From: an uncultured Candidatus Saccharibacteria bacterium
GTDB taxonomy: Bacteria; Patescibacteriota; Minisyncoccia; Phycocordibacterales; DATDWN01
Direction of reading: 5' to 3'
Length of the DNA: 64,000 nt
Assembly: GCA_964596875.1 (NCBI GenBank)
Contig: CAZQVT010000001.1
Span: 175,161 to 239,160 of the forward strand
This document shows positions 5,164 through 63,390 of this stretch, piece by piece (the stretch's first letter is position 1; every line of letters begins with the position of its first letter). The notes beneath the pieces are model-generated. The model ran no database searches, was not told the DNA's origin, and saw nothing but the letters and a program-made list of their open reading frames with translations. Made by a program: the position numbers and the translations under genes.

Positions 5164-5192
5164 TTGACGTTTATTTAAATAAATGATATACT
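5164..5192 (+). promoter_or_regulatory. sigma70-like promoter TTGACG-17-TATACT driving GC-rich small ORF
   Basis: near-consensus -35/-10 with 17-nt spacer ~55 nt upstream of ORF; GGGAGG RBS at ~5233. Confidence 0.55.
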
Positions 5193-5247
5193 ATATATAG
5201 GTTAATCCGCTCAAGGTTTTGCCTTGGGAGAAGGGAGGTAGATCAAA

Positions 5248-5460
5248 ATGACGCCACTTGCGAGTGAAGTACCGATCGTTCCGAGCATCATTCCTCTGTT
5301 GTTCGGTGAAGAGGGTGACTCCGGAGACGACGGAGACAACGGAAGCTCCGGAGACGACGGAGACGGCGGAACCGGTCAGGGTGATGATCCGGGGGATTCT
5401 TCGGGAGATGACTCCGGACCCGACCATGACGACTACGGTCACGACTCCGATGCCGACTAG
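5248..5460 (+). CDS. small acidic Asp/Gly/Ser-rich protein (70 aa), GC-rich minicassette 1
   Basis: ATG 9 nt downstream of GGGAGG; hydrophobic N-terminus then D/G/S low-complexity tail; internal DNA tandem repeats; GC far above flanks. Confidence 0.4.
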   Translation: MTPLASEVPIVPSIIPLLFGEEGDSGDDGDNGSSGDDGDGGTGQGDDPGDSSGDDSGPDHDDYGHDSDAD

Positions 5461-5486
5461 TTCGGCATGTGACTGACTGACGAGAG

Positions 5487-5513
5487 CGCCACTACCAATC
5501 CGGTAGTGGCGCT
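5487..5513 (+). terminator. hairpin GCGCCACTACC-AATCC-GGTAGTGGCGC after small ORF
   Basis: perfect 11-bp inverted repeat followed by short T stretch. Confidence 0.5.
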
Positions 5514-5539
5514 CGAACTTTTATATTATAATTTTACAC

Positions 5540-6820
5540 ATGAGTATATTTAGTGATTTTAATGTTGTAAGATCAGAAGATTTTCTTGAGAATGGCATTC
5601 GAGTAGTGCTTTTTAAACGTGAAGGTGCTCCAATTACTACCACAGCAATTTTAAAATCTGGTTCAAGACATGATCCCGAATCTATGCCAGGGTTATCACA
5701 TTTTATAGAACATATGATTACAAACGGGTCAAAAGTTTTTCCTACTAAGGATCTTTTGGCAGAACATATAGAATCGGTAGGTGGTGTTTATAGGGCTAGT
5801 ACAGGTCAAGATTCTATGATTGTAGACACTGAAATTTCTGATAGAGCTGATTATTCAAGGGTGGTTGATATCTTTAAGGCAACATTATGTGAACCGTTGA
5901 TGGATATAAAGGTTTTTGAGAATGAAAAAAAAGTGGTTGTGAAAGAAATTAAAAAAAGTGAGTCAAATCCATCTCAAATTGTGATAAAAACTGCAAGACA
6001 GTTATTTTTTTATGGCACTCCGCTTGAACATCCTGTTCTGGGCGATGAAAAAGCAATATTAGATTTTAAGTATGAGGATGTTTTAGATCAACATGTAAAA
6101 CTATTTGATAAATCACGAATTAGCATTATTGTATCTGGTGATATTGAGATGGATATGGTTATTGAAAAATTGAATGAAATTTCGTTTTTAGAAGGAAATA
6201 ATTTTTTGCCAAAGGCTGATAATCTGAATTTTTTAAACGAAAAAAAAATAAAATCAACTTTTTTTGATACAACTCAAACTTATATTTATTTTGGTGTCCA
6301 AGCCCCAGCCTCGTTTACTAAGGATTCTCTACATTTAAATATTCTAGGAAGCATTCTTGCCGGAGGAAGAAATTCAAGGTTAACAAAAAAATTGAGATAT
6401 GAAAAAGGATTGGTGTACAATGTTGGTTTCGGAAGAATTGGTGGAGTAAAACAGGGTTCATGGAATATAATTACTGATACCACCGAGGACAAGGTTCAAG
6501 AAGTTATTGATGAAATTATTAGTGAGATTAGTGATATTAGAAATTTTGGAGTTAAAGATTCAGAATTGGAGTTCGTTAAGAATAAGAGAATAAAATCATT
6601 GAAAAGAAATATGCAGACATCAAATGATTGGGTTGATTTTCATGCAATTGCTGAGGTTTTTTCGGAACAAACTTATAGCATAAATACTTATGTAGAAGAT
6701 ATAAAGAATACTACTGTAGAAGATATAAAAAAAGTAATAGATAAATACTTAGTTGATGACAAATGGAAATTAGCATTGTGTGGTAGAATAAAAGAAGAAT
6801 CAGTTAATATTAATTGGTAG
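5540..6820 (+). CDS. M16-family zinc peptidase (insulinase/pitrilysin-like)
   Basis: inverted zinc motif HFIEH near N-terminus, ~425 aa. Confidence 0.75.
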   Translation: MSIFSDFNVVRSEDFLENGIRVVLFKREGAPITTTAILKSGSRHDPESMPGLSHFIEHMITNGSKVFPTKDLLAEHIESVGGVYRASTGQDSMIVDTEISDRADYSRVVDIFKATLCEPLMDIKVFENEKKVVVKEIKKSESNPSQIVIKTARQLFFYGTPLEHPVLGDEKAILDFKYEDVLDQHVKLFDKSRISIIVSGDIEMDMVIEKLNEISFLEGNNFLPKADNLNFLNEKKIKSTFFDTTQTYIYFGVQAPASFTKDSLHLNILGSILAGGRNSRLTKKLRYEKGLVYNVGFGRIGGVKQGSWNIITDTTEDKVQEVIDEIISEISDIRNFGVKDSELEFVKNKRIKSLKRNMQTSNDWVDFHAIAEVFSEQTYSINTYVEDIKNTTVEDIKKVIDKYLVDDKWKLALCGRIKEESVNINW

Positions 6821-10569: not shown

Positions 10570-10597
10570 TTGACAAAATAGTTTTATTGTGTAATTT
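10570..10597 (+). promoter_or_regulatory. sigma70-like promoter TTGACA-16/17-TAATTT for GC-rich ORF
   Basis: consensus -35, AT-rich -10, AGGAGGG RBS at ~10621. Confidence 0.5.
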
Positions 10598-10633
10598 TAA
10601 TGTTGAACTGTTCCGACCCAAGGAGGGTCAAAG

Positions 10634-11305
10634 ATGGCGAAAAGCGTGAAAAAGGCTAAGGCTCGTCGAAACAACTGGAAGCGCGAAGCGACCGAAATCA
10701 TGGAGTTGCTGAAGGGCGCCAAGGCAACCATCGAGGCTCTCGAGCTCAAGCAGACTCAGTCGGATTCGGAGCTCGTCGGGGTGAAGGCCGAACTCGAATC
10801 GGCGAAGGCCGAACTCGACAAGGCCAAGGAAGAACTCGGTGCCGTGAAGGCCAAGTTGGCCGAAGTGGAGGCCGGCCTGTCGGCGCTGGAGACCACCAAC
10901 AAGGACCTGGTCAACAGGAACTTCGCTCTGGAAAGCGGCTTCTACGGCTCGCGTAGCAAGTCGCGTCGGCTCGAGAGTCGAAATCGCGAACTGCGGTTGG
11001 AAATCGACTCGCGCCGTCGGCTCGCCGGGGTTCTGGCTGTGTTTCATCACGCCAGTACCTGCACGGAGGACTGCTTAGAGGAGTTCGCGGCAGCCGGCCG
11101 GGCTGTGGGCGTCGACATCGACAAGATCGACAAGGCCCATGTGTCGGAAGCCTACAAGGCAGCCGGCCGTCGGCTTCACAAGCTGACCTGGGAGAAGGGT
11201 ATCCGCATGACCAAGTCGCACATGAGCCCTCAGTCAGCGACGGACTCACTCGAGGCTACGATCAACGCTGTCGAGCAGATGCTCGGGATGCGCGATCGGG
11301 TCTAG
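10634..11305 (+). CDS. coiled-coil hypothetical protein (223 aa), GC-rich minicassette 2
   Basis: heptad-like E/K/A/L-rich N-terminal half; strong RBS; GC ~58% vs ~35% flanks. Confidence 0.5.
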   Translation: MAKSVKKAKARRNNWKREATEIMELLKGAKATIEALELKQTQSDSELVGVKAELESAKAELDKAKEELGAVKAKLAEVEAGLSALETTNKDLVNRNFALESGFYGSRSKSRRLESRNRELRLEIDSRRRLAGVLAVFHHASTCTEDCLEEFAAAGRAVGVDIDKIDKAHVSEAYKAAGRRLHKLTWEKGIRMTKSHMSPQSATDSLEATINAVEQMLGMRDRV

Positions 11306-11323
11306 CCGAGGGGTGTAGAAGGT

Positions 11324-11358
11324 GGGGTGGCTTCGGTCGCCCCAGCTTCTTTTTTTTA
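11324..11358 (+). terminator. GC-rich hairpin + T9 run
   Basis: GGGGTGGC-TTCG-GTCGCCCC stem (with wobbles) followed by TTTTTTTTT. Confidence 0.6.
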
Positions 11359-11385
11359 TTTGAAATTTTGATATCATTTATAGTT

Positions 11386-13167
11386 ATGGAAAAAACTACT
11401 AAATCATCAAAGAACATACCGATAAGAAAAATTTTTGAGCAATATTGGATTGGTACTGAAAGTAAAAGAACTTTACTGTCTCTTTCAGTAGCCTTTTTCT
11501 TTGTTGCTCAGGTTGTGAGAGTGGTAATTCCTATTTTTTATAAAAAATTCTTTGATTTATTGAGTAGCTCAACAAATCCTGGTTCGGATGTGAATAATTT
11601 AGTTCATATTATATATATAGTATTGGGTCTAAATATTGTAAGTTGGGTTTCATGGAGAGTTGGTGTAAACATGTATAATGTAATGGAATCTCGTGTAATG
11701 GCAAAATTAAAACAAAATGCCTTTAACTACTTAACTAGACATTCATACACATTTTTCGCCAACACATTTGGAGGAAGTTTGGTTCAAAAAATAGGCCGTT
11801 TCAGTAGAGCATTTGAGGCCATACTAGATACTTTGGTGTTTAACTTGATGCCACTACTCATTGCGATTTTCGGCTCGATTTATGTAACCTGGACTATAGT
11901 TCCAGTGGTGTCTCTAATGATAATTGCCTGGGTAATAGTTTTTGTTGTGTTTAGTTTTGTTTTCTCAAATTGGAAACTTAAATACGACGAAATATCTGCC
12001 AAGGCTGACACTGCAACTACGGCATATCTTTCTGACGCTATTACAAACAGCACAGCGATGTCTTTTTTTACTGGTCATGAACACGAGTCGAACGGATTCA
12101 AAGATGTAACACAAGATCAAGCAAATAAGACATTGTTTTCTTGGAGACTTGGGGATGTTGTTGATGCTGTACAAACATTACTCATTTTAATAATAGAGTT
12201 TTTTGTATTTTATTATGCTGTCAGATACTGGAAGTCGGGTCTAGCAACTGTCGGTACTTTTGTTTTGATACAGTCTTATATCATTGGTCTTGCAAACCAA
12301 CTTTGGGGACTGAACAGAATAATCCGAAACTTGTACCAAAGTATTGCTGACTCAAAAGAAATGGTGGAGATTTTGATAACTCCATATGAAATTCAAGACA
12401 AACCAGATGCAAAAGATATTGTTGTGAAAAATGGTGAGATAAAGTTCGAGAATGTTACTTTCAATTTTGGAAAAGGGGAAGATGCCTTGAAGGAAATTAA
12501 CCTTACTATCGGTGCCGGTGAAAAAGTTGCTGTGGTTGGTCATAGTGGTGCGGGTAAAACAACTTTGGTTAGACTTATTATGCGACTTTATAATATTACT
12601 TCGGGACATCTATATATAGACAACCAAGATATTGAAGAAGTAACACAAGACAGTTTGAGAAATAACATAAGTTTTGTTCCTCAAGATCCAATACTATTTC
12701 ACAGAACTCTAATGGAAAATATTAGATATGGAAAGCGTGATGCAACAGATGAGGAAGTTATACAGGCTTCAAAACTAGCACATTGTGATGACTTTATAGA
12801 TAAACTTCCTTTGAAATACGATACATATGTTGGTGAAAGAGGTATAAAACTTTCTGGAGGTGAAAGACAAAGGGTCGCTATTGCCAGAGCTTTACTTAAA
12901 AAAGCCCCGATACTTATTTTTGATGAAGCCACGTCGTCACTCGACTCATACTCAGAGTCACTTATTCAGGATGCGTTAGAAAACCTAATGAAAAATAGTA
13001 CAACAATAGTTATAGCCCACAGACTTTCCACTATAAAGAGAATGGATAGAATTATTTCTATGGATGAAGGCAGGATTGTAGAAATCGGAACACACGAAGA
13101 ACTGGCACACAAAGAAAATGGTTTGTATAAAAAGTTGTGGGACTTACAGGTTGGTGGTTTTGTTTAG
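11386..13167 (+). CDS. ABC exporter, fused permease/ATP-binding (MsbA-like)
   Basis: 6-TM domain then Walker A GHSGAGKT, signature LSGGERQR, Walker B ILIFDEATS; ATG at 11386 preferred over TTG at 11368. Confidence 0.85.
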   Translation: MEKTTKSSKNIPIRKIFEQYWIGTESKRTLLSLSVAFFFVAQVVRVVIPIFYKKFFDLLSSSTNPGSDVNNLVHIIYIVLGLNIVSWVSWRVGVNMYNVMESRVMAKLKQNAFNYLTRHSYTFFANTFGGSLVQKIGRFSRAFEAILDTLVFNLMPLLIAIFGSIYVTWTIVPVVSLMIIAWVIVFVVFSFVFSNWKLKYDEISAKADTATTAYLSDAITNSTAMSFFTGHEHESNGFKDVTQDQANKTLFSWRLGDVVDAVQTLLILIIEFFVFYYAVRYWKSGLATVGTFVLIQSYIIGLANQLWGLNRIIRNLYQSIADSKEMVEILITPYEIQDKPDAKDIVVKNGEIKFENVTFNFGKGEDALKEINLTIGAGEKVAVVGHSGAGKTTLVRLIMRLYNITSGHLYIDNQDIEEVTQDSLRNNISFVPQDPILFHRTLMENIRYGKRDATDEEVIQASKLAHCDDFIDKLPLKYDTYVGERGIKLSGGERQRVAIARALLKKAPILIFDEATSSLDSYSESLIQDALENLMKNSTTIVIAHRLSTIKRMDRIISMDEGRIVEIGTHEELAHKENGLYKKLWDLQVGGFV

Positions 13168-16538: not shown

Positions 16539-16648
16539 ATGATCCCGTAAGAAATAGAAGGAGATCGGGATTACCATTATCAGATAATTCAAATAATTAA
16601 ATAAGGAGTAGTAATTAAATATACGATCTCCTATTTCAAACGGGATGA
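16539..16648 (+). promoter_or_regulatory. structured leader / TIR element L1 enclosing aspS start codon
   Basis: 5' arm ATGATCCCGTAAGAAAT pairs with 3' arm ATTTCAAACGGGATGA (ATG = aspS start); same arms in L2 and L3. Confidence 0.6.
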
Positions 16649-20713: not shown

Positions 20714-20840
20714 AAAATTTTCAAATTTGGCCAATCTCATCTTCTAAATTTTCAAAATTCTCGTCACCTTAGCACTAACTAAGGCTTCTCACATTTTCAA
20801 AATTTATAAGCGACCTTGTCTCAAATTGTGAAAGTTTGAA
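20714..20840 (+). repeat. intergenic structured hairpin element, copy D
   Basis: inner stem CCTTAG/CTAAGG compensatory relative to copy C; conserved flanks and GTGAAAGTTTG tail. Confidence 0.7.
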
Positions 20841-20850
20841 AAGTTTTTGT

Positions 20851-20898
20851 AAACGAAAAGGCCGACACGATAGTCTGTATGACCTGATCGTATCGGCC
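20851..20898 (-). terminator. hairpin GGCCGA(T)ACGAT...ATCGT(G)TCGGCC + TTTTCGTTT ending GC-rich minicassette 3
   Basis: 11-bp imperfect inverted repeat followed by T run on - strand, just after stop of 20917 ORF. Confidence 0.55.
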
Positions 20899-20916
20899 GA
20901 AGCCCGTGTGTGTGGG

Positions 20917-21186
20917 CTAGAACCGCTTACTGACGTACTTGAGTGCTTCCCAGGTGAGTAACACCAGTGAGGAGTACACGATTGGCAGTGACGCCAGTCC
21001 GTACTCGTAGCTCTCGGTGAACATGGAGACCATGAGTCCCAGAGTCAGTACTCCGTGCAGAAGCAGGGGAACGAAGTACAGTACTATTGCAGGGAGAACG
21101 AGGCTAATGATTGCCCCGAACACCCTGAGCCACTTGTCGTCTCGATACCCGCCCATGAGGAGCGGGTTAAAGCCCAAGCATCCCAT
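20917..21186 (-). CDS. hypothetical small membrane protein (89 aa, ~2 TM), gene 3 of GC-rich minicassette 3
   Basis: ATG preceded by GGAGGAGCG; hydrophobic helices; GC-rich. Confidence 0.45.
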   Translation of the reverse strand: MGCLGFNPLLMGGYRDDKWLRVFGAIISLVLPAIVLYFVPLLLHGVLTLGLMVSMFTESYEYGLASLPIVYSSLVLLTWEALKYVSKRF

Positions 21187-21194
21187 CGCTCCTC

Positions 21195-21299
21195 CTACAT
21201 CTTGAAGGCGATAACCGCCAGGATTACGGCGATGCAGCCCAAGGCGAATTGGATTTCTCTTGTAGCCTTCTTGAAGTACTCGAACTGTTCTTCGGTCAT
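21195..21299 (-). CDS. 34-aa single-TM peptide (MTEEQFEYFKKATREIQFALGCIAVILAVIAFKM), gene 2 of minicassette 3
   Basis: not in ORF track (<60 aa); ATG 6 nt after TAGGAGGCT RBS; stop 8 nt before next ATG. Confidence 0.4.
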   Translation of the reverse strand: MTEEQFEYFKKATREIQFALGCIAVILAVIAFKM

Positions 21300-21309
21300 G
21301 CCTAGCCTC

Positions 21310-21735
21310 CTATCGAAGTTGGACCATCTCGCCGACCACGTCGTCCTTGCCTTCGAGGCTTTGGACGATGAAGTTGGTTGCTCCGCAGGCGTCGCAGAGG
21401 AACTTCACGACATCCATCTTCTGGATCTCGAGTTCCTCCACCTTGTCGATCGTGACGAAGTTCTTGTCGACGATCTTGCCGAGATGCACTCGGACCTTGC
21501 CCGTTGTGTTCAACTTGAACGCGATCACTCCGGGCTTGGTGTCGTACCGGAGCTTCATCCCGATGGCGCTGTGAGGCACGATGGTGAACTGGACGGAGTT
21601 TTCAAGTGCGATCGCGTACGGCTTCATGGGCTGGGTTGTTTCCACCCAGTAAACCATTGAAACTATCGCGACCGTGAGTGCGCAAATGACGAGTATTCCT
21701 CGCCAGTGGCGGGACAGAGTAGTGTCTTCGGTCAT
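21310..21735 (-). CDS. hypothetical membrane-anchored protein (141 aa, N-terminal TM), gene 1 of minicassette 3
   Basis: ATG 6 nt after GGAGGCC RBS, consensus promoter upstream. Confidence 0.5.
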   Translation of the reverse strand: MTEDTTLSRHWRGILVICALTVAIVSMVYWVETTQPMKPYAIALENSVQFTIVPHSAIGMKLRYDTKPGVIAFKLNTTGKVRVHLGKIVDKNFVTIDKVEELEIQKMDVVKFLCDACGATNFIVQSLEGKDDVVGEMVQLR

Positions 21736-21754
21736 GCTGTGGCCTCCGATATTA

Positions 21755-21782
21755 ATTATATCATTTATACAGTATAAGTCAA
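21755..21782 (-). promoter_or_regulatory. consensus sigma70 promoter TTGACT-16-TATAAT (on - strand)
   Basis: read from reverse complement; 5'UTR GTATAAATGATATAATTAATATCGGAGGCCACAGCATG is homologous to 5'UTR of cassette 6. Confidence 0.6.
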
Positions 21783-26952: not shown

Positions 26953-27078
26953 ATGAATCCCGTAAGAAATTATTTAGTTAAAAGGATGAATGTGGTTATG
27001 TGTGATAAAATTATTCGAACAAACATTATTATTAATTTTATATACGGAAACTAAAGTTTCCTATTTCAAACGGGATGA
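26953..27078 (+). promoter_or_regulatory. structured leader / TIR element L2 enclosing murG start codon
   Basis: 5' arm ATGAATCCCGTAAGAAAT, penultimate hairpin ACGGAAAC-TAAA-GTTTCC, 3' arm TATTTCAAACGGGATGA. Confidence 0.6.
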
Positions 27079-29805: not shown

Positions 29806-31077
29806 ATGAGATGGCAGAAATACATACTTTTTCTAATACTCCTACTTTCAACTAGTATTGCTATTGCCCAAAACGCCACAACTTCAGAAGTTCTAAAAAA
29901 CAAAATCGACGAAAGAAACAACCAGATAAAAAAACTTGAAGAAGAAATAAAAGTCTACAACAAAGAAGTAGAAACTGCTGGCAAACAAGCCAAGACTTTG
30001 CAGACTACACTAAAAACTCTTGACCTTACCAAAAAGAAAATCGAAACGGATATTTCGCTTACAGAAAACAAAATAACTAAAACTACCCTAACTATAGATC
30101 AACTTGGTCAAGAAATAGGTACTACTAGAAGCAAAATAGATGTAAACAAACAGGCTATAAGTGCGGCACTCAAAAATAGACAGTACATGGACAGTACTGA
30201 CTTTATTAGTATGATGCTGTCGAAAAAAAGTCTGGGTGAAATATGGGGCGACATAGACGACATAGAGGAAGTTCGTGAAGCGATACGTGTAAAGACTTTG
30301 GAGTTAGACTCTCTAAAGAAAAATATGGAAAACAATCAAGAAAATCTAAAAGGTGAAAAGACCAACTTGGTTACCCTAAAACAAGACCTCTCTGGTAAAA
30401 AACAAGCCGTAGAATACACAACTCAGGAAAAGGCTGCGGTGCTAGTTGAAACAAAAAATAAAGAACAAACATACAAAGAACTTGTAAAAACAAAACAACA
30501 ACAAAAAGATCAGTTCGAGAAAGAACTTTTCGAATACGAGTCACAACTAAAATATCTTATCGACCCAAACAGTTACCCTAAAGGTAGAAGCGGAATTTTT
30601 GCGTGGCCACTAGATAAAGTTATCATTACACAAAAGTTTGGTAAAACTGTTGGCGCAGAAAAACTATACGCATCTGGTAGTCACAATGGTGTAGACTTTG
30701 GCGCAAGTATTGGAACAAGAGTTAAAAATGTTTTAGACGGAGAAGTTGTGGGTACAGGGGACACAGACAAATACCCTGGCTGTTACTCTTTTGGTCGCTG
30801 GGTTATGGTAAAACACGGCAATGGTCTCTCTACAATATACGGACACCTTTCTGTGATAAGTGTGCAGAAAGGTCAAACACTTAAGACTGGAGATACGATA
30901 GGTTTTTCTGGAAACACAGGTTACTCTACTGGTCCGCATTTACATATATCTGTTTATGCGACTCAAGGTGTGCGTATAGAAAAATACGTAAATAGTAGGG
31001 GATGTAAAGAGGCGACTCTCCCACTTGCCGACATCAAAGCCTACCTAGACCCACTGGCATACTTCCCATCACTTTAG
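29806..31077 (+). CDS. M23 family metallopeptidase with N-terminal coiled coil (EnvC-like)
   Basis: signal/TM, long coiled coil, HNGVDFGA...GNTGYSTGPHLH M23 motifs. Confidence 0.85.
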   Translation: MRWQKYILFLILLLSTSIAIAQNATTSEVLKNKIDERNNQIKKLEEEIKVYNKEVETAGKQAKTLQTTLKTLDLTKKKIETDISLTENKITKTTLTIDQLGQEIGTTRSKIDVNKQAISAALKNRQYMDSTDFISMMLSKKSLGEIWGDIDDIEEVREAIRVKTLELDSLKKNMENNQENLKGEKTNLVTLKQDLSGKKQAVEYTTQEKAAVLVETKNKEQTYKELVKTKQQQKDQFEKELFEYESQLKYLIDPNSYPKGRSGIFAWPLDKVIITQKFGKTVGAEKLYASGSHNGVDFGASIGTRVKNVLDGEVVGTGDTDKYPGCYSFGRWVMVKHGNGLSTIYGHLSVISVQKGQTLKTGDTIGFSGNTGYSTGPHLHISVYATQGVRIEKYVNSRGCKEATLPLADIKAYLDPLAYFPSL

Positions 31078-31101
31078 GCATATATTTGGTATAATAAACA
31101 T

Positions 31102-31308
31102 ATGAAAAAACCTAGAACAAACCAAGGATTTGTAGTGAAAATTGTTTTGATCATCGTTGCGCTTATCTTTGTGAAATACTATTTCCATATAGATATAGTT
31201 GAATGGTATAAGTCTCCTACAGGCCAAAAGTACGTTGGAAGTATCTGGAATATGATAAAGGACTTCTACAACTGGGCCGACAACTACGCTAGGACTAAGG
31301 TGTTTTAG
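31102..31308 (+). CDS. small hypothetical membrane protein (68 aa)
   Basis: ORF only; stop abuts stop of convergent RloB-like gene. Confidence 0.25.
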   Translation: MKKPRTNQGFVVKIVLIIVALIFVKYYFHIDIVEWYKSPTGQKYVGSIWNMIKDFYNWADNYARTKVF

Positions 31309-31830
31309 TTACGAATTGAATAATTTATGTATTTCAGGAAAGTATGTTTTGAAAATAATATTGTTTGGTATTATCTTTATTAAATCAATATTTTTCATGT
31401 GTTGTGCTTCCTTGCCGAAGTGGCTCAAAAAATTCTTTTTACAGATGGATCTGAAATTTTTTGAATCGATAGTATTTTTGATTTTTTTACCCACTATTTC
31501 CAGTAAGACACCCTCTGGATTGGGGTTACATAATTGAACTTTGTGGCGAAGACCTTTTATGTATAGTGCTATTTTTTGAGAATCATCAAGATCGTAGTCC
31601 GCCATAAAAAAGAAGTGGATTTTCTCACTTAGTTTTTTTGGTTTAATTTCATACTTTCGTGTTAAGCTAGAAACTTTATTACTGAAAGTCTTTAAGTCAT
31701 TAAACCCCCCCATAATCTCATATTTAAAAGATAAGGGCTTTGAGCAAAAATAAGTTTTGAAAAATCCAAAAAGATTGTATTCTGTGGGTCCTTCACAACA
31801 TATCACATATACATCCTTGGTACTTCTCAT
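31309..31830 (-). CDS. RloB-like (TOPRIM-like) protein, AbiLii-like
   Basis: N-terminal VYVICCEGPTEYNLF matches RloB family CEGxxTExxYF signature; 14 nt downstream of AAA_21 ATPase gene. Confidence 0.6.
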   Translation of the reverse strand: MRSTKDVYVICCEGPTEYNLFGFFKTYFCSKPLSFKYEIMGGFNDLKTFSNKVSSLTRKYEIKPKKLSEKIHFFFMADYDLDDSQKIALYIKGLRHKVQLCNPNPEGVLLEIVGKKIKNTIDSKNFRSICKKNFLSHFGKEAQHMKNIDLIKIIPNNIIFKTYFPEIHKLFNS

Positions 31831-31843
31831 AAATAGTTTATTT

Positions 31844-33052
31844 TTAAATAAATTGCTTGATCATGTGTTCGAATCCAATTGTATCAGGTGTGCCTCCAAG
31901 CAAACCGAGTCTATACTTCTTCTTTAAATTATCCCTATTTTTTACATCCTTCAATTCAGATACCTTGTAAACAATTGAATTATGCTTCTCTTTTTCCACA
32001 ATAAAAGTTTGATCAAGATTCAGGAGCTCTAAGGTTTCGTGATTATGTGTCGCAAAAAAAATTTGAGCATTACCAGTATTTATATCTTTGTTTTTAAATA
32101 AAGATATAATTGATTTCTCTATTTCTGGGTGAAAATACAAATTTGTCTCGTCATAGACAACTAAACCGCCCTTTTTGAAGACAGTAAGTAAATTATATAT
32201 ATGTGCAAAAAGCTCCTTTGTTCCAGCTGATTCTTGCATTAAATCTACGCTTTCATAAAAACCTTTATGTGAAACTTTCACTGATGATGTATTGTTTTCA
32301 ATATCAAGTGATTCAATAGTGTCGTCAAATCGACTCATTATATCTCTAGTAAGTTTTATCATTTCTTCTTTCTTGTTTTTTTCAGCAGTACTTATTCGAA
32401 ATGCATGAGATATTATTCCAAAAATAGTTGGCATAGAATCTAGCTCCGCAGTTTTCGTAAACCAGGACTTTAAATCCCTAAAATAATTAAAATCTTGACC
32501 AGCCCTAAACCCCTCTATTAGATGTGATAGAAGGGTTTGGTACTCAGCAAGCTTTAAAACTGAAAAATATGATTTATGATCTTTGAAGTCTGGGCCAAAA
32601 GTTATTTTTCCATTGAGTCTGTTGAATACAAGCTTAGGTTTTCCAGATTTTAACTTTGTGTTAGTTACGAACAGAGTTTCCGAGCTAATATTTTTTCTAT
32701 CCTTAATTTCTATGTCGTATTTGTAATAGTTTTCATTCAACAAAATATCTATACCAAGCTTGGTTGGTTTATTTTTAAAAGTAGAATGAAAGTTGTTGTA
32801 GGCTAAAATAGTGTCTTTTTGTTCAGGAGTAAGTGTTGTTTTTGTATACATTAAACGTATAAGCGAACTGATTGCTTTTAAAATAGTACTTTTGCCACTA
32901 GCATTAGCACCGTAGAATCCATTTAGAAGAGAAATCTTCTGATTTTTAAAGTTTAAATATCCATCTTCAGTAGTAGAACCTCCCTTTATAAAGTTCAATT
33001 CTAGTGGTTTACCAACAGAATAAAAGTTTGCTAAACGTATTTTTGTTATCAT
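31844..33052 (-). CDS. AAA_21/ABC-type ATPase, RloA/AbiLi-like
   Basis: Walker A GANASGKST, Walker B VVYDE, H-loop ATHNHE; 402 aa; low GC. Confidence 0.7.
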   Translation of the reverse strand: MITKIRLANFYSVGKPLELNFIKGGSTTEDGYLNFKNQKISLLNGFYGANASGKSTILKAISSLIRLMYTKTTLTPEQKDTILAYNNFHSTFKNKPTKLGIDILLNENYYKYDIEIKDRKNISSETLFVTNTKLKSGKPKLVFNRLNGKITFGPDFKDHKSYFSVLKLAEYQTLLSHLIEGFRAGQDFNYFRDLKSWFTKTAELDSMPTIFGIISHAFRISTAEKNKKEEMIKLTRDIMSRFDDTIESLDIENNTSSVKVSHKGFYESVDLMQESAGTKELFAHIYNLLTVFKKGGLVVYDETNLYFHPEIEKSIISLFKNKDINTGNAQIFFATHNHETLELLNLDQTFIVEKEKHNSIVYKVSELKDVKNRDNLKKKYRLGLLGGTPDTIGFEHMIKQFI

Positions 33053-33557
33053 ATTAATATTTATGCAATAAAATGTACAATTTAAAGTATAGTACCTTAA
33101 ATTAAATACGTCAAACCTTAGGGCAGGGGACTTCCCTACAAATAATAGGAAATTTTAGAACCTCAAATAATGGGGTTCGGATGGTAAAAGGGGTGCTATC
33201 TAGGTACCTAGAAAAGAGAACTCTAAGCCAATTATTTGGTGCATTTTTATATATAAATATTTAATGAAAACCATTTAATGATTAAACTGAACAAACGAAT
33301 CTTTTGAGCAAACCCCCTTAGGGACTATGCTAAAAAGATATATTGTGCGACACGGCTATATACTCCCCCCCTCTATATAACTAACTAAAAACAATAAAAC
33401 ATTTAATTACTAAAATAATTGAATATGTAATTATTTTGCATCAAAAAAATCCCGCCCCCACCCCACCCTGGTTCAGCCGGTTTACACAAAAGTAAAAATA
33501 CATATACTTATTACGAAACACAATATCCGTTCTTTTCGGTTTCTGGAGGTTCGCGCC

Positions 33558-34007
33558 ATGAATGGCATTGAAGGAAACGTTCAGCTGGTGTTCGTGCTGA
33601 TGGGCGTGATCTCTGGTCTTTTGGGCGGAATTGCCCACGCCAAGAAACGGCACGGTTTGGGGTGCTACAAGAACGGCACTCTGAGTCTGACACCACAGTG
33701 GTACCGCTGTGGCAGTTGCTGGACTGCCGTAGTCTTCTACGCGGTTTTCATGGGCTGCATTTTTGCGCTCATGCACGACATTTACTACGCTGGCACTCAG
33801 ACAGTTGGAGGTGCCATCGGACAAGTTGTCGTCACGTTTTTTGGTGTCATATTGTCTGCCGTGTTGACGTTAGCGGTGGCACTGCTGGGCTTGCTTGCCA
33901 TCGGCTACTCGGAACATCGCTGGCCTCAGTGTCGTAAGTATAAGTGGATCTCCTACAGCTTCGCAGTCATCGTTCGAACGTATCTCTATCACCTCACTAG
34001 ATACTAG
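33558..34007 (+). CDS. hypothetical integral membrane protein (149 aa, ~4 TM, Cys-containing), GC-rich minicassette 4
   Basis: ATG 7 nt after GGAGG; GC-rich. Confidence 0.45.
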   Translation: MNGIEGNVQLVFVLMGVISGLLGGIAHAKKRHGLGCYKNGTLSLTPQWYRCGSCWTAVVFYAVFMGCIFALMHDIYYAGTQTVGGAIGQVVVTFFGVILSAVLTLAVALLGLLAIGYSEHRWPQCRKYKWISYSFAVIVRTYLYHLTRY

Positions 34008-34028
34008 GAGCGCAGACAACCACCACAC

Positions 34029-34077
34029 ATCGCAAGTCGCAAGATCCGGAGGATCGCAAGGCGACTTGCGATTTTCC
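34029..34077 (+). terminator. 12-bp perfect hairpin ATCGCAAGTCGC...GCGACTTGCGAT + TTT
   Basis: immediately after 33558-34007 ORF; two further small hairpins follow. Confidence 0.55.
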
Positions 34078-34198
34078 ATATATAAAAATACAGGCTACTT
34101 GCCTGTTTCACATAAATACAAATAGCCCTTGCGGGCCATTTGTCTAATTAGTATAACTCTGGGGCTTTTGTATAGATAGTAAGTTATGCACAGGTAAC

Positions 34199-34982: not shown

Positions 34983-36053
34983 CTATAGACCCTCGTTTCT
35001 AAGACCCTCTATAGTCTTTTTTGCGTCTTTTGAGAGTTTGTGAGGCATAACTATGCTTGTTATGACCAATATATCACCCCTACTTCCCCTATCTAGGGCG
35101 ACACCCTTGCCTTTGATACGAAGTATTTCTCCATGTTTTAGACCCTCTGGTACTTTTAGGGTGATATCGCCTTCTAGAGTTTTGATAACAGTTTCGCCTC
35201 CCAGGATGGCATCGGTAAGTTTGACTGGAAGATCCATGACAAGGTTTGCACCTTCTTTTCTAAAGAAAGCATGTTTTTTAACGTAAACCTTTATATACAA
35301 GTCTCCTGACTGGCCAGAGGCTATGGCTTCCCCTGCCCCAGATAGGCGGATCATTTCTCCACTTTCTATACCTGCGGGAATATGGACTTTTATCTCTGTT
35401 TCGCGTTTTAGTAGGCCCTCTCCGCGACAAGTTTCACATTTATTTTTAGGGACTTTGCCAGCACCGTGACAGACGTCACATGTTGTTTGAGTTTCAAACT
35501 GACCAAAGAATGTTCTTTTGACTTCGCGAATAGAGCCCTTGCCGTTACATTTTGAACAAGTCGCTTGTTCGCTACCTTTTTGTCCACCAGAACCATTGCA
35601 AGTCTCACATTTTGAAACCTTGTTTAGTAGAACTGTTTTGTCTACTCCAAAGACAGAGTCTTCGAAAGATATTTCAGTGTCGATAGATATGTCACGACCT
35701 CTTTTTGATTGTCTTCTTCCACCACCGCCAAATACATCACCAAAGATGTCACCAAAGTCGAACTCGAAGCCACCGTTCGCACCCTGCGTAAACTGTGAGA
35801 AGTCAAAACCTTCAAATCCGCCACCGAAACCACCTCCTCCCATGTTTGGACCGGCAGAGCCAAACTGGTCGTACTGCGCACGTTTCTGGTCATCAGAAAG
35901 AATCGAGTAAGCCTCGTTTATTTCTTTGAACTTTGCATCATCGCCAGTTTTTTTGTCCGGGTGATATTTATGGGCTAGGGTTCGAAAAGCCTTTTTGATC
36001 TCGTCTTTTGAGGCCTTTTTGTCGACGCCCAAAGTTTGGTAGTAATCTTTCAT
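34983..36053 (-). CDS. dnaJ: molecular chaperone DnaJ
   Basis: J domain with HPD, G/F region, four CxxCxGxG zinc-finger repeats; start at MKDYYQTLGV preferred over upstream extension. Confidence 0.9.
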   Translation of the reverse strand: MKDYYQTLGVDKKASKDEIKKAFRTLAHKYHPDKKTGDDAKFKEINEAYSILSDDQKRAQYDQFGSAGPNMGGGGFGGGFEGFDFSQFTQGANGGFEFDFGDIFGDVFGGGGRRQSKRGRDISIDTEISFEDSVFGVDKTVLLNKVSKCETCNGSGGQKGSEQATCSKCNGKGSIREVKRTFFGQFETQTTCDVCHGAGKVPKNKCETCRGEGLLKRETEIKVHIPAGIESGEMIRLSGAGEAIASGQSGDLYIKVYVKKHAFFRKEGANLVMDLPVKLTDAILGGETVIKTLEGDITLKVPEGLKHGEILRIKGKGVALDRGSRGDILVITSIVMPHKLSKDAKKTIEGLRNEGL

Positions 36054-36160
36054 GATTGTTATTATAAGGTTTTTTTGGGTAATGTATAGGTTTGACCACA
36101 CCCTATCTATAATGTAGTCTGTATTGTGGAATACGGGTCATCTTGGCCCACGGAGAAACC

Positions 36161-36496
36161 ATGAGCGAGTCTCTTTTGGGTGAGGTTAAGTTCCCAGTGC
36201 AGTTTGCCTGCGATATCTGCGGGCATCACTTTTCGTGCGAGCGAGAGGGCCTGAAGAGCCACGAAGTCAACAGGAGGCACTTTATCAGACTGATTCGTAC
36301 CACGGTCGTTGCGGCCTGTCCCGCGTGCGATGCAAACGTGGGCAGATCATTCGATGAGCTGCTTCCGGATGCTCCTAACACTCTCGGTGAACTGCGAGCG
36401 CAGTACAAAGTCGCCCGCGGCAACGGTGCTGGGCCTCTCGAGGCCATCGGCTTCGCCAAGTTCAAGATTCGTCTCGTCAAGCGGAGGATCGCATGA
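36161..36496 (+). CDS. hypothetical Cys4 zinc-ribbon protein 1, GC-rich minicassette 5
   Basis: CxxC...CxxC, Arg/Lys-rich tail, GGAG RBS; ATG 36161 preferred over TTG 36143. Confidence 0.4.
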   Translation: MSESLLGEVKFPVQFACDICGHHFSCEREGLKSHEVNRRHFIRLIRTTVVAACPACDANVGRSFDELLPDAPNTLGELRAQYKVARGNGAGPLEAIGFAKFKIRLVKRRIA

Positions 36497-36783
36497 ATCG
36501 TCAGCGCCATCGGTTTGTATGCAGCAATTGTAGTACCTCATTCGAACCGGAGTGTCCGGTCGTCCCAACGGAGAACGTTCGGTCTGAAGTTCCGAAGGCG
36601 AAGCTCCTGGAGGCGAGTTGTCCGCTTTGCGGTTACACGGTCAAGATGATCGTGAACGGAGTGTTGGACATCGAGAGGCTTCATAGCGATCCGGTGAAAC
36701 GTCAGTACTTCCATCACAGGCGTCGCGGAATGGATGCTCCTCTAGCCAGGCGCTTGGCGAACCGGCTCGCCACAAGAAACTAG
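36493..36783 (+). CDS. hypothetical Cys4 zinc-ribbon protein 2 (translationally coupled)
   Basis: ATGA start/stop overlap with previous ORF, GGAGG RBS, CxxC...CxxC, basic C-terminus. Confidence 0.4.
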   Translation: MNRQRHRFVCSNCSTSFEPECPVVPTENVRSEVPKAKLLEASCPLCGYTVKMIVNGVLDIERLHSDPVKRQYFHHRRRGMDAPLARRLANRLATRN

Positions 36784-36806
36784 TTCCCGCCCCTCTGGGG
36801 CATACC

Positions 36807-36841
36807 AGCCCGTGGCCGAGTTCGCTCGTCGCGGGCTTTGT
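36807..36841 (+). terminator. hairpin AGCCCG...CGGGCT + TTT after zinc-ribbon pair
   Basis: 6-bp GC stem with weak U tract; also GCCCC-TCT-GGGGC hairpin at 36789-36801. Confidence 0.4.
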
Positions 36842-36853
36842 CACATCTCTTTG

Positions 36854-38755
36854 CTATTTATTGTCTTCTGGTTTCTTTTCCTCAAAGTCCGCGTCTCGAA
36901 CATTATCCCCTTCTTGTTTTGGAGCCTCAGTTCCAGCACTAGCGTTTGCTTTGTTTATCGCCTCCCCTATTTTAGATGTTTCGTTTGAAAGATCTACAGT
37001 AGCTTTTTTAATCGCTTCTATCTCTGAAGCAGTATTTGCAAGTACATCTTTCAATGCTTTAGATTTTTCTTCTACACTTGCTTTTACATCACTAGGCACT
37101 TTGTCGCCTGCATCTTTTAATGCTTTTTCTGCTGTGTAGATAAGTTGCTCACCAATGTTTTTTGCTTCAACAAGATCTTTTTTCTTTAAGTCGTCTTGTG
37201 CGTGCATCTCTGCGTCCTTTTGCATTTTTTCTATGTCCTCTTTAGAAAGTCCAGAACGAGCCTCTATGCGAATAGACTGCTCTTTGTTTGTCGCTTTATC
37301 TTTTGCTTTTACTGATAGGATTCCGTTTGCATCTACATCAAATGAAACTTCTACCTGAGGCATACCTCTTGGTGCAGGTGGAATACCGTCTAGAATAAAT
37401 CTACCTAGGGACTTGTTGTCACTTGCCATCGCTCTTTCACCTTGAACAATGTGAATTTCTACAGAAGTTTGATTGTCGGCTGCCGTAGAGAAAACTTGTG
37501 AACGACTTGCAGGGATAGTCGTGTTTCTCTCAACTAGTTTTGTTGCAACACCTCCCATAGTTTCGATACCAAGAGAAAGTGGAATAACATCTAGAAGTAG
37601 AACGTCTTTAACATCACCAGCAAGTATTCCACCTTGGATAGCAGCACCTAGGGCTACAACTTCGTCTGGGTTTATAGACTTGTTTGGATCTTTCTGGAAG
37701 AACTCTTTAACTTTTTCTGCAATTTTTGGCATTCTTGTCTGTCCTCCTACTAGGATAACTTCATTTACTTGTGAAGTAGAAAAACCTGAAGCCTCCATAG
37801 CTCTTTTTGTGATAGCCATTGCTCGGTCAATGAATTCTGCTGTAAGCTCCTCTAGTTTTGCTCGAGTTATTTTTATAAGCAAGTGTCGTGGACCAGAAGC
37901 ATCAGATGTTATGAACGGAATATTTACTTCAGACTCCATTGCCGTAGAAAGTTCTATTTTTGCTTTCTCTGCAGCCTCATCAAGGCGCTGTAGTGCTAGA
38001 GTGTCGCCTCTTAGGTCTATACCAGATTCCTTTTTAAATTCATCTGCAAGGAAGTTAATAATTTTTTGGTCAATATCTTTACCTCCCAAGTGTGAGTCTC
38101 CGTCTGTAGATTTTACCTCTATAACAGAGTCCCCTACTTCTAGAACTGACACGTCGAATGTTCCGCCTCCAAAGTCGAACACTACGATTTTCTCTTCTTT
38201 TTTACCCTTGTCAAAACCGTATGCAAGTGCTGCGGCTGTTGGCTCGTTTATGATTCGCAATACTTCAAGACCTGCAATAGCGCCAGCGTCTTTTGTTGCC
38301 TGTCTTTGTGAGTCGTTAAAGTATGCAGGCACTGTGATGATAGCCTGTGTTACTTTCTCACCTATTTTTGCTTCTACATCTGCTTTGATTTTTGAAAGCA
38401 CCATTGCAGATATTTCTTCTGGAGAATAGTTTTTATCTCCCATCTTTACACTTACCCCGCCCGTAGAGCCTTTTGAAACAGCAAAAGGAACTATTGCTTT
38501 GTCTTTTTGAACAGCTTCATCGTCAAATGTGTGACCAATGAATCTTTTGATCCCAAAAACTGTGTTTGTTGGGTTTGTTACTGCCTGTCTTTTTGCTAAG
38601 AGGCCCACAAGTCTTTCACCAGTTTTAGATGTTGCGATGATAGAAGGTGTTGTTCTTGCACCCTCTGAGTTTTCTAATATTTTTGGTTGCCCTGCTTCCA
38701 TGATTGCGACAGCAGAGTTTGTTGTACCTAAGTCGATACCTATTATTTTTGCCAT
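36854..38755 (-). CDS. dnaK: molecular chaperone DnaK (Hsp70)
   Basis: [16 protein letters not shown], full 633-aa Hsp70. Confidence 0.95.
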
Positions 38756-39238: not shown

Positions 39239-39838
39239 TTATTCAAAGTGTGCGACTTTTACTTTGGGCGCTCTTATCTCTTTTCCATTTAGTTCATATC
39301 CTACTTGTATTACGTCCAATATTTTACCCTCGTCATCCTTGCTGTCAACTTTTACTGTTTCTATGGCCTCATCTCTCTTACTATCATACATTTGTCCAAC
39401 AGGGTTTATTACATTTAAACCATGACCTGCCAAGGCGTTTAGAAGTTGAGTTCTTATATATTCGATACCAACTCTCCAGTTTTTATCTACTTTTTCCCAA
39501 GTCTCTTTGTTTCGCATTGCGTTGTCAAAAGAGTCTAGTGCTGGAATTATCTCAGAAATAAGGTCGGCTTTTGCAAACTTTAAAAACTCAGACTTTTCAT
39601 CCGCATCTCGTTTTCTAGAGTTAAGAAACTCTGCTTTATCGCGTTGCCAAGCATCCAAAATTTCTGCATTTTTCTTTTGCAACTCCTTTATTTGGGCCTT
39701 TAGTTTTTCTGTGCGGTCTTTTATCTCAGGAGCAAGGTTTTCCGGCATATCTTCAAAAGTGACATCGTCACCTGGGTCTGTGTCTACCTCGTCTTTTGTT
39801 ACTCTATTTAACTCTTCATCTCTCTGGTCATCATTCAT
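39239..39838 (-). CDS. grpE: nucleotide exchange factor GrpE
   Basis: coiled-coil N-terminus and C-terminal beta-domain typical of GrpE; start at MNDDQRDEEL. Confidence 0.85.
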   Translation of the reverse strand: MNDDQRDEELNRVTKDEVDTDPGDDVTFEDMPENLAPEIKDRTEKLKAQIKELQKKNAEILDAWQRDKAEFLNSRKRDADEKSEFLKFAKADLISEIIPALDSFDNAMRNKETWEKVDKNWRVGIEYIRTQLLNALAGHGLNVINPVGQMYDSKRDEAIETVKVDSKDDEGKILDVIQVGYELNGKEIRAPKVKVAHFE

Positions 39839-39891
39839 AGGACTGTATTTTAACACAAAAAATATATGGGTCAAATGTAGCACTTTGATTT

Positions 39892-39956: not shown

Positions 39957-40220
39957 ATGGCTTTTTGTCGACTTACTCGTGTAGTAAAGAAAGATGGAAC
40001 CACCAGGGATGTACTCCAGGTGTTTTACGATGATCAAAAGATCGAACCGGTAATTCTTGAAAAAGGAGAAGGAACTCAATATGTTATAGAAGGGACCACA
40101 ACCATCTTTGGGAATTCAGAAGAAATGCTTCCCGAAGATCTCAAGGCTGAGGTGCTGGCGATTCGTGATTCGATTGAGCGTGGTGAATTCGTAGACATTG
40201 ATCACAAGCTCGACAAGTGA
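39957..40220 (+). CDS. hypothetical small protein (87 aa), minicassette 6
   Basis: GGAGG RBS 7 nt upstream; 5'UTR homologous to cassette 3; flanked by direct repeats. Confidence 0.4.
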   Translation: MAFCRLTRVVKKDGTTRDVLQVFYDDQKIEPVILEKGEGTQYVIEGTTTIFGNSEEMLPEDLKAEVLAIRDSIERGEFVDIDHKLDK

Positions 40221-63266: not shown

Positions 63267-63390
63267 CCCGTTTGAGATAGGAAACCTGTGGTTTCCGTAG
63301 TTAAATTATGTTTTATTAAATTATTTCGACCACTTAGTTATTTATAAATATATTTTTCAACATTAACCACGTAATCTCTTACGGGATCAT
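63263..63390 (-). promoter_or_regulatory. structured leader / TIR element L3 enclosing ychF start codon
   Basis: on - strand: ATGATCCCGTAAGAGAT ... ACGGAAACCACAGGTTTCC TATCTCAAACGGGATGA. Confidence 0.6.

Follow-up and report, generated by a model that had tools for sequence, protein, structure and literature searches.

A predicted two-gene zinc-ribbon operon as cargo of a clade-wide accessory slot between dnaK and dnaJ in Zambryskibacteria-like Parcubacteria

The window analyzed here is a stretch of 64,000 nucleotides from contig CAZQVT010000001.1 with a GC content of 37%, and its host is a Zambryskibacteria-like Parcubacterium of the candidate phyla radiation (CPR). The spacer between the heat shock genes dnaK and dnaJ spans 800 bp in this window and contains two small open reading frames (ORFs) on the plus strand, opposite to dnaK and dnaJ. 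They are designated ORF1 and ORF2 and represent the protein families ORF-A and ORF-B, respectively. The pair is very probably a real accessory operon residing in a slot that is found throughout the clade. The features of the locus, including the Shine-Dalgarno (SD) sequences, are the following.

34983-36053, minus strand: dnaJ, flanking core gene, with the true start at the methionine of MKDYY
36061-36088, minus strand: dnaJ promoter-like site from a consensus scan, TATACA-16-TATAAT, with the -10 hexamer ending 7 nt before the dnaJ ATG (36053)
36092-36120, plus strand: predicted promoter of the pair, based on conservation, with TTGACC (36092-36097), a 17-nt spacer and TAGTCT (36115-36120)
36121-36160, plus strand: short 5' leader containing the SD of ORF1; its start, GTATTGTGGAAT, is shared with the related locus L082
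36152-36155, plus strand: SD GGAG of ORF1, 5 nt before its ATG
36161-36496, plus strand: ORF1 (ORF-A family), 111 aa, with an alternative TTG start at 36143
36483-36487, plus strand: SD GGAGG of ORF2, inside the 3' end of ORF1 and 5 nt before the ORF2 ATG
36493-36783, plus strand: ORF2 (ORF-B family), 96 aa
36789-36801 and 36807-36837, plus strand: two GC-rich hairpins, followed by UUUGUCACAUCUCUUUGCUAUUUAUU, a U-rich tail running into the dnaK stop codon
36854-38755, minus strand: dnaK, flanking core gene, with its stop codon at 36854-36856
39239-39883, minus strand: grpE

A first-pass annotation of the window had described two coupled ORFs with an ATGA overlap, a GGAG(G) ribosome-binding site ahead of each, hairpins downstream and a position between dnaK and dnaJ on the opposite strand, and all of these elements are confirmed at the coordinates above. 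Its GC content of ∼60% captured the GC richness of the pair with a slightly high figure: ORF1 and ORF2 show 57% and 55% GC, and the GC-rich block delimited by a two-change-point fit (36134-36836) shows 58%, compared to 40% for dnaK and 44% for dnaJ. The GC content at third codon positions (GC3) is 0.66 in ORF1 and 0.64 in ORF2 compared to 0.27 in dnaK and 0.37 in dnaJ, and the 67 bp of promoter region between dnaJ and the block contain 31% GC. The ATGA overlap (36493-36496) implies a probable translational coupling of the two ORFs. Two adjacent small genes with this overlap, one promoter-like site upstream and one hairpin pair downstream point to cotranscription, and the predicted transcript would extend from about 36127 to about 36840, an extent with which the GC-rich block coincides. 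The hairpins (-30.5 kcal/mol; z = -3.1 on the plus strand and -1.75 on the minus strand relative to shuffled sequences) form the probable terminator of ORF1 and ORF2, convergent with the dnaK stop codon, and the second hairpin is retained in the related loci L001 and L082. A GTG start of dnaJ at 36101 was rejected as a mere upstream extension by the ORF finder.

On comparative evidence, ORF1 and ORF2 are genuine genes, and both deserve annotation as such. A scan for DnaK with one genome per species yielded 80 related loci, all from metagenome-assembled genomes (MAGs) of Parcubacteria, Zambryskibacteria or Paceibacterota. The closest full locus, L001, encodes a DnaK with 92% identity and has a spacer of 809 bp, in which two opposite-strand ORFs with an identical ATGA overlap lie at the same site as the pair of the window. 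Their products are 30% identical to ORF1 and 42% identical to ORF2 (pairwise E = 1e-15 each); the DNA similarity of the two pairs is almost nil, and the frames are recovered by tblastx. The L001-type pair is located between dnaJ and dnaK in nine further independent assemblies (L081 to L089), and the ATGA overlap is present in L001 and L081 to L086. ORF-A orthologues from L001, L084 and L082 are about 30 to 47% identical to ORF1. Comparison of L001 with L084 shows 35 differences in 596 positions, with 13 synonymous and 7 nonsynonymous changes in ORF-A and 12 and 3 in ORF-B. The resulting ratios of nonsynonymous to synonymous polymorphism (pN/pS) are 0.16 for ORF-A and 0.07 for ORF-B in the annotated frames, compared to 1 to 2.6 in the other sense frames and 2.2 in the frame of a long antisense ORF. 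Substitutions concentrate on third codon positions in the annotated frames only. Over short times, the pair is evidently under purifying selection.

The encoded proteins agree with the CxxC...CxxC zinc-ribbon-like basic proteins described in the first-pass annotation. ORF1 and ORF2 have isoelectric points of 9.2 and 9.9 and basic tails, and their cysteine pairs (C17/C20 and C53/C56 in ORF1; C10/C13 and C43/C46 in ORF2) lie ∼30 residues apart. The four cysteines are invariant across all known members of each family, with a pair spacing in ORF-A that varies from CxxC to CxxxxC. With four cysteines in two knuckles conserved in homologues, both proteins fit the C4 zinc ribbons, which are a structural class and not a homologous family. 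ORF-A is further characterized by an N-terminal FP(V/I)Q motif and a C-terminal G-x-GPLE-x-x-G(F/Y)AK-x-x-(I/V)R motif, and ORF-B is characterized by SE(V/F)P, YF-x-x-RR and a basic C-terminal helix. Both proteins are predicted to bind zinc, and binding of nucleic acid is suggested by shape and charge only. Profile-profile comparison of the zinc-ribbon modules of ORF-A and ORF-B with hhalign gives a probability of 80% (E = 1.5e-5), and ORF1 and ORF2 may be old, distant tandem paralogues.

The two families are previously undescribed and very rare. An exhaustive phmmer search of 1.84 billion representative proteins returned only two relatives of ORF2: P0001, the orthologue from L001, and P0002, a protein of 104 aa with 36% identity. 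A profile built from these three ORF-B sequences found no relatives beyond the two. The 5.9-kb contig of P0002, from JGI 3300050046, also contains grpE, dnaK and dnaJ; the P0002 gene stands alone downstream of dnaJ on the opposite strand, with no adjoining gene of ORF-A size called, and the dnaK-dnaJ spacer of this contig is filled by a different opposite-strand ORF of 138 aa. Exact-sequence look-ups of ORF2 and DnaK returned nothing on record, ORF1 and ORF2 as single queries found no homologue in word-indexed searches, and no relatives emerged from metagenomes scanned with a two-sequence profile for each family. Neither family has a match in the scanned viral contigs, and tblastn against phage records yielded chance knuckle matches only, with E values of at least 0.2. 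Nothing significant was obtained from Pfam, PHROGs, NCBIfam and PADLOC, where only sub-threshold zinc-ribbon knuckle or chance matches occur, and profile searches of the PDB gave nothing below E = 0.2. Single-sequence AlphaFold2 models of ORF1 and ORF2 are poor, with mean confidence scores (pLDDT) of 45 and 57. The ORF2 model, β-rich with a C-terminal helix at a pLDDT of only 57, gave nothing significant with Foldseek (best E = 0.6). As for a free-standing homing endonuclease of the HNH or GIY-YIG type, Pfam shows no nuclease domain, and the sole HNH match among the PHROGs (E = 0.16) falls on a cysteine knuckle.

In having two knuckles ∼30 residues apart within ∼100 aa, the pair resembles small CxxC...CxxC proteins such as Zn_ribbon_8/TIGR02605 (FmdB), MJ0042_CXXC, Lar, CpXC and DUF7560. 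Matches to these generic zinc ribbons sit on the knuckles and reach at best 18 bits compared to curated cut-offs of 25 to 34. For PF09723/TIGR02605 (FmdB/Zn_ribbon_8), ORF1 and ORF2 score 13.3 and 11.2 bits against a cut-off of 34.4, and P0001 scores 17.5 bits against a cut-off of 31.3, which places all three outside this family. The motifs GPLE..GFAK, SEVP and YF..RR have no counterpart in the generic zinc ribbons.

The first-pass annotation took the dnaK-dnaJ spacer as normally short, but long spacers prevail in this clade. The related loci were divided into a close group with DnaK identities of at least 81% (n = 28, including the window) and a distant group (n = 47). The close group shows a median spacer of 524 bp, with more than 200 bp in 24 of the 28 loci and an SD-led opposite-strand ORF of at least 40 aa in 19. 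In the distant group, the median is 96 bp, 8 of the 47 spacers exceed 200 bp, and such an ORF is present in 4. The opposite-strand ORFs of the close group start 68 to 116 nt from the dnaJ ATG and vary in identity from lineage to lineage. The slot of L008 holds an FeeM-like acyl-amino-acid synthase (E = 8.6e-17), that of L022 holds a protein of the Janus/Ocnus family (E = 1.4e-12), and others hold several unrelated clusters of small ORFans; the slots of L003 and L011 are empty, with spacers of 61 to 107 bp by different estimates. The profiles of the zinc-ribbon pair match L001-type loci only. Kinship of the pair to the cargo ORFs of other relatives was considered and rejected: among them the profiles match L001 only, and clustering kept the sequences apart.

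The pair is not confined to this genome and occupies the slot at the same site in three sister lineages, those of the window, L001 and L082. These lineages are mutually nearest in full-length DnaJ identity (86 to 92%, followed by L003 with 81% and the rest with at most 75%), so that one acquisition by their shared ancestor is the simplest history. Samples in which these lineages occur include SRR12762304, SRR23086383, SRR35439986 and JGI 3300046786. According to the first-pass annotation, the same pair at the same place in related organisms with host-like GC would mark it as ancestral rather than inserted; the shared place is found, and the host-like composition is not (the spacer of L001 has 51% GC in a locus of 39% GC, and GC3 is ∼0.6 compared to ∼0.3). 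The pair is not a component of the dnaK heat shock operon, given its opposite strand, its presence in three sister lineages only and the unrelated or absent content of the slot elsewhere.

Two back-to-back promoters are predicted in the spacer. Of the 28 closest relatives, the window among them, 20 have an opposite-strand motif of the form TTGAC-N17-19-TAnnnT, mostly ending in TAGTCT and mostly 40 to 44 nt from the dnaJ ATG, and neither the sequence between the hexamers nor the downstream ORF is conserved among these relatives. The arrangement TTGACC-17-TAGTCT is identical in L001 and L082 and is the putative promoter of the pair. As a conserved motif, it lends support to the antisense promoter facing the dnaK 3' end that had been proposed earlier. 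The TATAAT box then invoked exists at 36108-36113 on the plus strand, but it lies inside the 17-nt spacer, 10 nt from TTGACC, and is probably not a functional -10 hexamer. In close relatives, a strong SD and an ORF follow ∼10 to 35 nt after the resident promoter. In the window, TTGACN-17-TAGTCT is confined to this one site and was rejected as a promoter serving its other GC-rich islands.

On the dnaJ side, a CCTTATAAT block lies ∼7 to 16 nt before the dnaJ ATG, after TATACA-like hexamers, and is conserved in most of 21 aligned relatives; it is also found in the cargo-free loci L003 and L011. An independent dnaJ promoter is thus predicted for this clade, in which cotranscription of dnaJ with dnaK should not be assumed. 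The TATAAT -10 hexamer ends 7 nt before the ATG and is not followed by an SD, which suggests a leaderless or near-leaderless dnaJ mRNA. In L082 and L017, an extra leader of ∼60 to 90 nt lies between the -10 hexamer and the ATG. The long spacer, the separate dnaJ promoter and the opposite-strand promoter all occur in relatives with other cargo, and the split of the heat shock operon therefore appears to predate the pair, contrary to the earlier proposal that insertion of the pair had split it.

The pair differs from its host in translation signals as well as in composition, as the first-pass annotation had stressed for its GC content. None of the 52 long host ORFs in the window shows GGAG, GAGG, AGGA or AAGG upstream, and GGAG or GAGG at positions -16 to -4 precedes 14 of 551 ORFs when the related loci are included. 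All seven ORFs of the five GC-rich islands in the window carry GGAG(G) 4 to 9 nt before the ATG, with GC3 values of 0.59 to 0.78. The cargo of L002, L023, L025 and L029 has host-like GC3 values (0.26 to 0.34) and is yet SD led, which ties the SD to the slot and not only to GC-rich cargo. The window contains no 16S rRNA. Literature on SD usage in Patescibacteria or on GC-rich small genes in Parcubacteria gave nothing relevant by title or abstract. SD-led and often GC3-rich cargo against an SD-less core offers a computational handle for finding strain-variable small proteins in Patescibacteria, and the contrast raises the question of whether one cell initiates translation in two ways.

The four other GC-rich islands (5175-5566, 10578-11404, 20818-21775 and 33451-34088; 49 to 56% GC) lie between housekeeping genes and contain SD-led ORFan genes with GC3 values of 0.59 to 0.78. 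Their products are an Asp/Gly-rich acidic peptide of 70 aa encoded behind a TTGACG-17-TATACT promoter, a coiled-coil protein of 223 aa, proteins of 141 and 89 aa and a membrane protein of 149 aa. These ORFs have no Pfam relatives, and viral-contig scans with three of them were empty. The L001 site that corresponds to 33400-34113 holds different, unalignable content. A candidate for a second accessory slot beside the heat shock cluster is found immediately upstream of grpE, where an ORF of 87 aa (39957-40220, plus strand; SD GGAGG; GC3 of 0.39) runs opposite to that gene.

The evolution of the pair differs sharply from that of its flanks. Between the window and L001, nonsynonymous divergence (dN) is 0.7 to 0.8 for the pair compared to 0.07 to 0.10 for DnaK and DnaJ, and synonymous sites are saturated. 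The ORF-B proteins of L082 and L083 are 91% identical to that of L001, and between L082 and L001 the synonymous divergence (dS) of ORF-B is 0.15 although that of dnaJ is 1.10. ORF-A of L082 and L083 is a third allele, 43 to 47% identical to both others. The sliding nucleotide identity of L082 and L001 is 90 to 97% at the dnaJ 5' end, falls to 41 to 55% in the ORF-A core and is again 90 to 96% from the 3' end of ORF-A through ORF-B and the terminator to about position 2288 of L082, at the start of the dnaK 3' end. The ends of ORF-A are constant (FP(V/I)Q and GPLE..G(F/Y)AK), and the zinc-ribbon core is the part that is swapped. Judged from these alignments, the history of the pair is one of ORF-A allele replacement and lateral exchange of ORF-B, not gradual divergence. 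The exchange probably proceeds by homologous recombination across the conserved flanks, with dnaK as a likely homology arm.

The explanation favored here, held at a probability of roughly 0.6 as a whole, is that of a two-gene zinc-ribbon operon that forms the present cargo of a clade-specific accessory slot, is subject to allele replacement and plays a conflict-type role. In the proposed mechanism, the resident promoter and the SD behind it would drive whichever ORF fills the slot, and translational coupling would give a fixed ratio of two proteins acting together. The constant partner would be ORF-B, target recognition would fall to the variable zinc-ribbon core of ORF-A, and the pair would bind nucleic acid or another macromolecule. 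Its role would be in defense, against mobile elements or in the manner of a toxin-antitoxin system and not within the chaperone machine. A two-component conflict-type function, at which the replacement of ORF-A alleles and the lateral exchange of ORF-B hint, is a tentative part of this explanation. More speculative still is a broader view for this clade with its SD-less core genes, in which certain intergenic sites, equipped with a resident promoter, an SD and a terminator, would serve as expression slots that capture and swap small, often GC-rich cargo through homologous recombination across the neighboring core genes. The pair would then be a polymorphic two-component conflict system with a swappable ORF-A and a constant ORF-B under frequency-dependent selection. 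If true, this would define an undescribed class of accessory genes and a defense-like family in CPR bacteria.

Several observations weigh against this explanation. P0002 appears solitary, so ORF-A and ORF-B are perhaps not obligate partners. The proteins have no homology to characterized proteins in Pfam, PHROGs, NCBIfam, PADLOC, the PDB or Foldseek searches, their structural models are of low confidence, and only their architecture, their charge and the pattern of their evolution underlie the functional proposal. The family has been found in no more than about four lineages, a narrow range for a conflict system, as such systems are usually widespread. The promoter and the terminator are assigned by consensus and conservation, and TAGTCT is a weak -10 hexamer. 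Finally, synonymous sites are saturated, yet GC3 stays at ∼0.6 in each of the three lineages, which plain vertical descent in an AT-rich host fails to explain; the genes may be reintroduced from a GC-rich reservoir, gene conversion may be biased toward GC at a hotspot of recombination, or selection may act on the mRNA.

This persistent composition also speaks for a recent foreign insertion, in which a mobile element or a donor of high GC content would have supplied a GC-rich cassette that split a formerly tight dnaK-dnaJ operon. The GC-rich block, the GC3 values that have not decayed to those of the host (0.64 to 0.66 compared to ∼0.3), the canonical SDs in a genome segment with none ahead of 52 long host ORFs and the short spacers of the distant relatives all fit such an event. 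However, two sister lineages have the same pair at this site, and their dnaJ genes show saturated synonymous divergence from that of the window; the spacer and both promoters are common to relatives with other cargo, the dnaJ promoter even to cargo-free ones. Viral contigs, phage records and metagenome scans yielded no donor. Flanking direct repeats, inverted ends or a recombinase were not found at the island, where a repeat search for mobile-element ends gave short chance repeats only. A recent foreign insertion is on balance unlikely.

A type II toxin-antitoxin module would consist of ORF1 as a zinc-ribbon antitoxin or regulator and ORF2 as the toxin, or of the two in swapped roles, which together autoregulate their promoter. 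MqsRA is a type II toxin-antitoxin operon whose antitoxin binds zinc, and the pair shares with such modules two small genes with a 4-nt overlap, an own promoter, a location in a variable hotspot and a possible zinc-binding partner. The basic nature of both proteins and the allelic replacement of one partner alongside lateral exchange of the other are likewise compatible with it. The pair nevertheless lacks sequence or profile similarity to toxin and antitoxin families in Pfam, NCBIfam and PADLOC as well as any PDB match, and it has no recognizable DNA-binding fold of the helix-turn-helix, ribbon-helix-helix or AbrB type. Its extreme rarity and the apparently solitary P0002 do not fit either, and a cognate toxin and antitoxin should covary tightly, whereas ORF-B is nearly constant while ORF-A is swapped. 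These points make the assignment to type II toxin-antitoxin modules a rather improbable one.

The position of the pair would be explained directly if the two proteins were chaperone-linked accessory factors that modulate DnaK and DnaJ or their expression. The ORF-B family adjoins dnaJ in all four known lineages, with P0002 in a different intergenic gap; the promoter of the pair diverges back-to-back from that of dnaJ, and its predicted transcription converges on the dnaK 3' end. The four lineages are closely related, however, and the linkage is perhaps simply inherited. In other relatives, the slot holds the FeeM-like protein, the Janus/Ocnus protein or other ORFans or, as in L003 and L011, nothing, and core chaperone cofactors are not expected to reach a dN of 0.5 to 0.8 while DnaJ stays at 0.07 to 0.10, so that a chaperone-linked role is very improbable. 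Spurious ORFs in a GC-rich noncoding element (structured RNA or relic DNA) or in an assembly chimera can be dismissed: GC-rich DNA does yield long chance ORFs on both strands, such as an antisense ORF of 94 aa at 36226-36510, and the two ORFs lack database homologues, but this reading is refuted by the third-position bias in the annotated frames only, the conserved overlap, SDs and eight cysteines, a similarity higher at the protein than at the DNA level and the presence of the pair in ten independent assemblies, and a known or overtly structured RNA is rejected given the absence of Rfam matches (none at gathering score in the window and none at E ≤ 1 in 35900-37000) and an unremarkable whole-transcript fold (z = -1.6).

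Core-gene-flanked hotspots of chromosomal integration and recombination are a general concept of bacterial pangenomics, and the slot resembles them in its fixed site between conserved genes, its accessory content that differs among close relatives and its conserved flanks that seemingly act as homology arms. In contrast to the usual hotspots, it lies inside a heat shock gene cluster, carries tiny cargo of one to a few ORFs of 60 to 230 aa, has no integrase or tRNA gene and retains a promoter and an SD ahead of any cargo, an unusual arrangement. Integron cassettes, which are expressed from the Pc promoter, offer a second parallel: small, often ORFan genes with a composition unlike that of the host are swapped behind a fixed promoter. 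Such cassettes end in an attC site with the inverted cores RYYYAAC and GTTRRRY, and an intI tyrosine recombinase and an attI site lie next to them. The slot differs from integrons in the absence of a cassette array and of an attC-like GTTRRRY core in 36784-36853, where only GTTCCCG and GTTCGCT occur and the hairpins are terminator-like; its exchange looks like homologous recombination via dnaK and dnaJ. No integrase is found among the ORFs listed for 32 to 40 kb of the window, which are grpE, dnaK, dnaJ, an ORF of 156 aa with no Pfam match, an ORFan membrane protein and an AAA_21 ATPase, besides the pair.

CPR bacteria have tiny genomes, and their accessory gene pools are poorly understood; this clade exchanges small genes at a fixed site with a resident promoter even within its grpE-dnaK-dnaJ cluster. 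With its replaced ORF-A core and exchanged ORF-B, the pair is a well-defined candidate for a small, novel system related to conflict.

Beyond the pair, the window shows a second type of variable segment. A low-GC (∼30%) stretch of 1.9 kb at 31290-33184 is absent from the syntenic site of L001 and contains, at 31844-33052 on the minus strand, a gene for an AAA_21/AbiEii-like ATPase of 402 aa (Pfam E = 2e-21); the segment is likely a defense-type insertion. The cumulative GC skew peaks at about 30000 to 34000, with genes oriented on the plus strand to the left and on the minus strand to the right, in line with a replication terminus. This peak also harbors the AbiEii-like insertion and one of the GC-rich islands.

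The closest DnaK match, with 95% identity over 483 aa, stems from a 4.9-kb contig (L079, JBEBJM010000044.1) of a MAG labeled Nitrospira sp. The contig is probably of parcubacterial origin and misbinned.

A hairpin-forming element of ∼105 to 120 nt is located at start codons at 16541-16646 and 26955-27076 on the plus strand and at 63268-63388 on the minus strand, ahead of genes for a class II aminoacyl-tRNA synthetase, an MurG-like glycosyltransferase and YchF; it is also present before dnaJ in L016 and L013. Its form is ATG-ATCCCGTAAGAAAT...[∼75 nt AT-rich]...TCCTATYTCAAACGGG-ATG, where the ends are inverted repeats and an ATG adjoins each of them, and its 16-nt end motif occurs three times compared to 0.05 expected occurrences. 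The element could be an insertion similar to a miniature inverted-repeat transposable element or a 5' leader structure.

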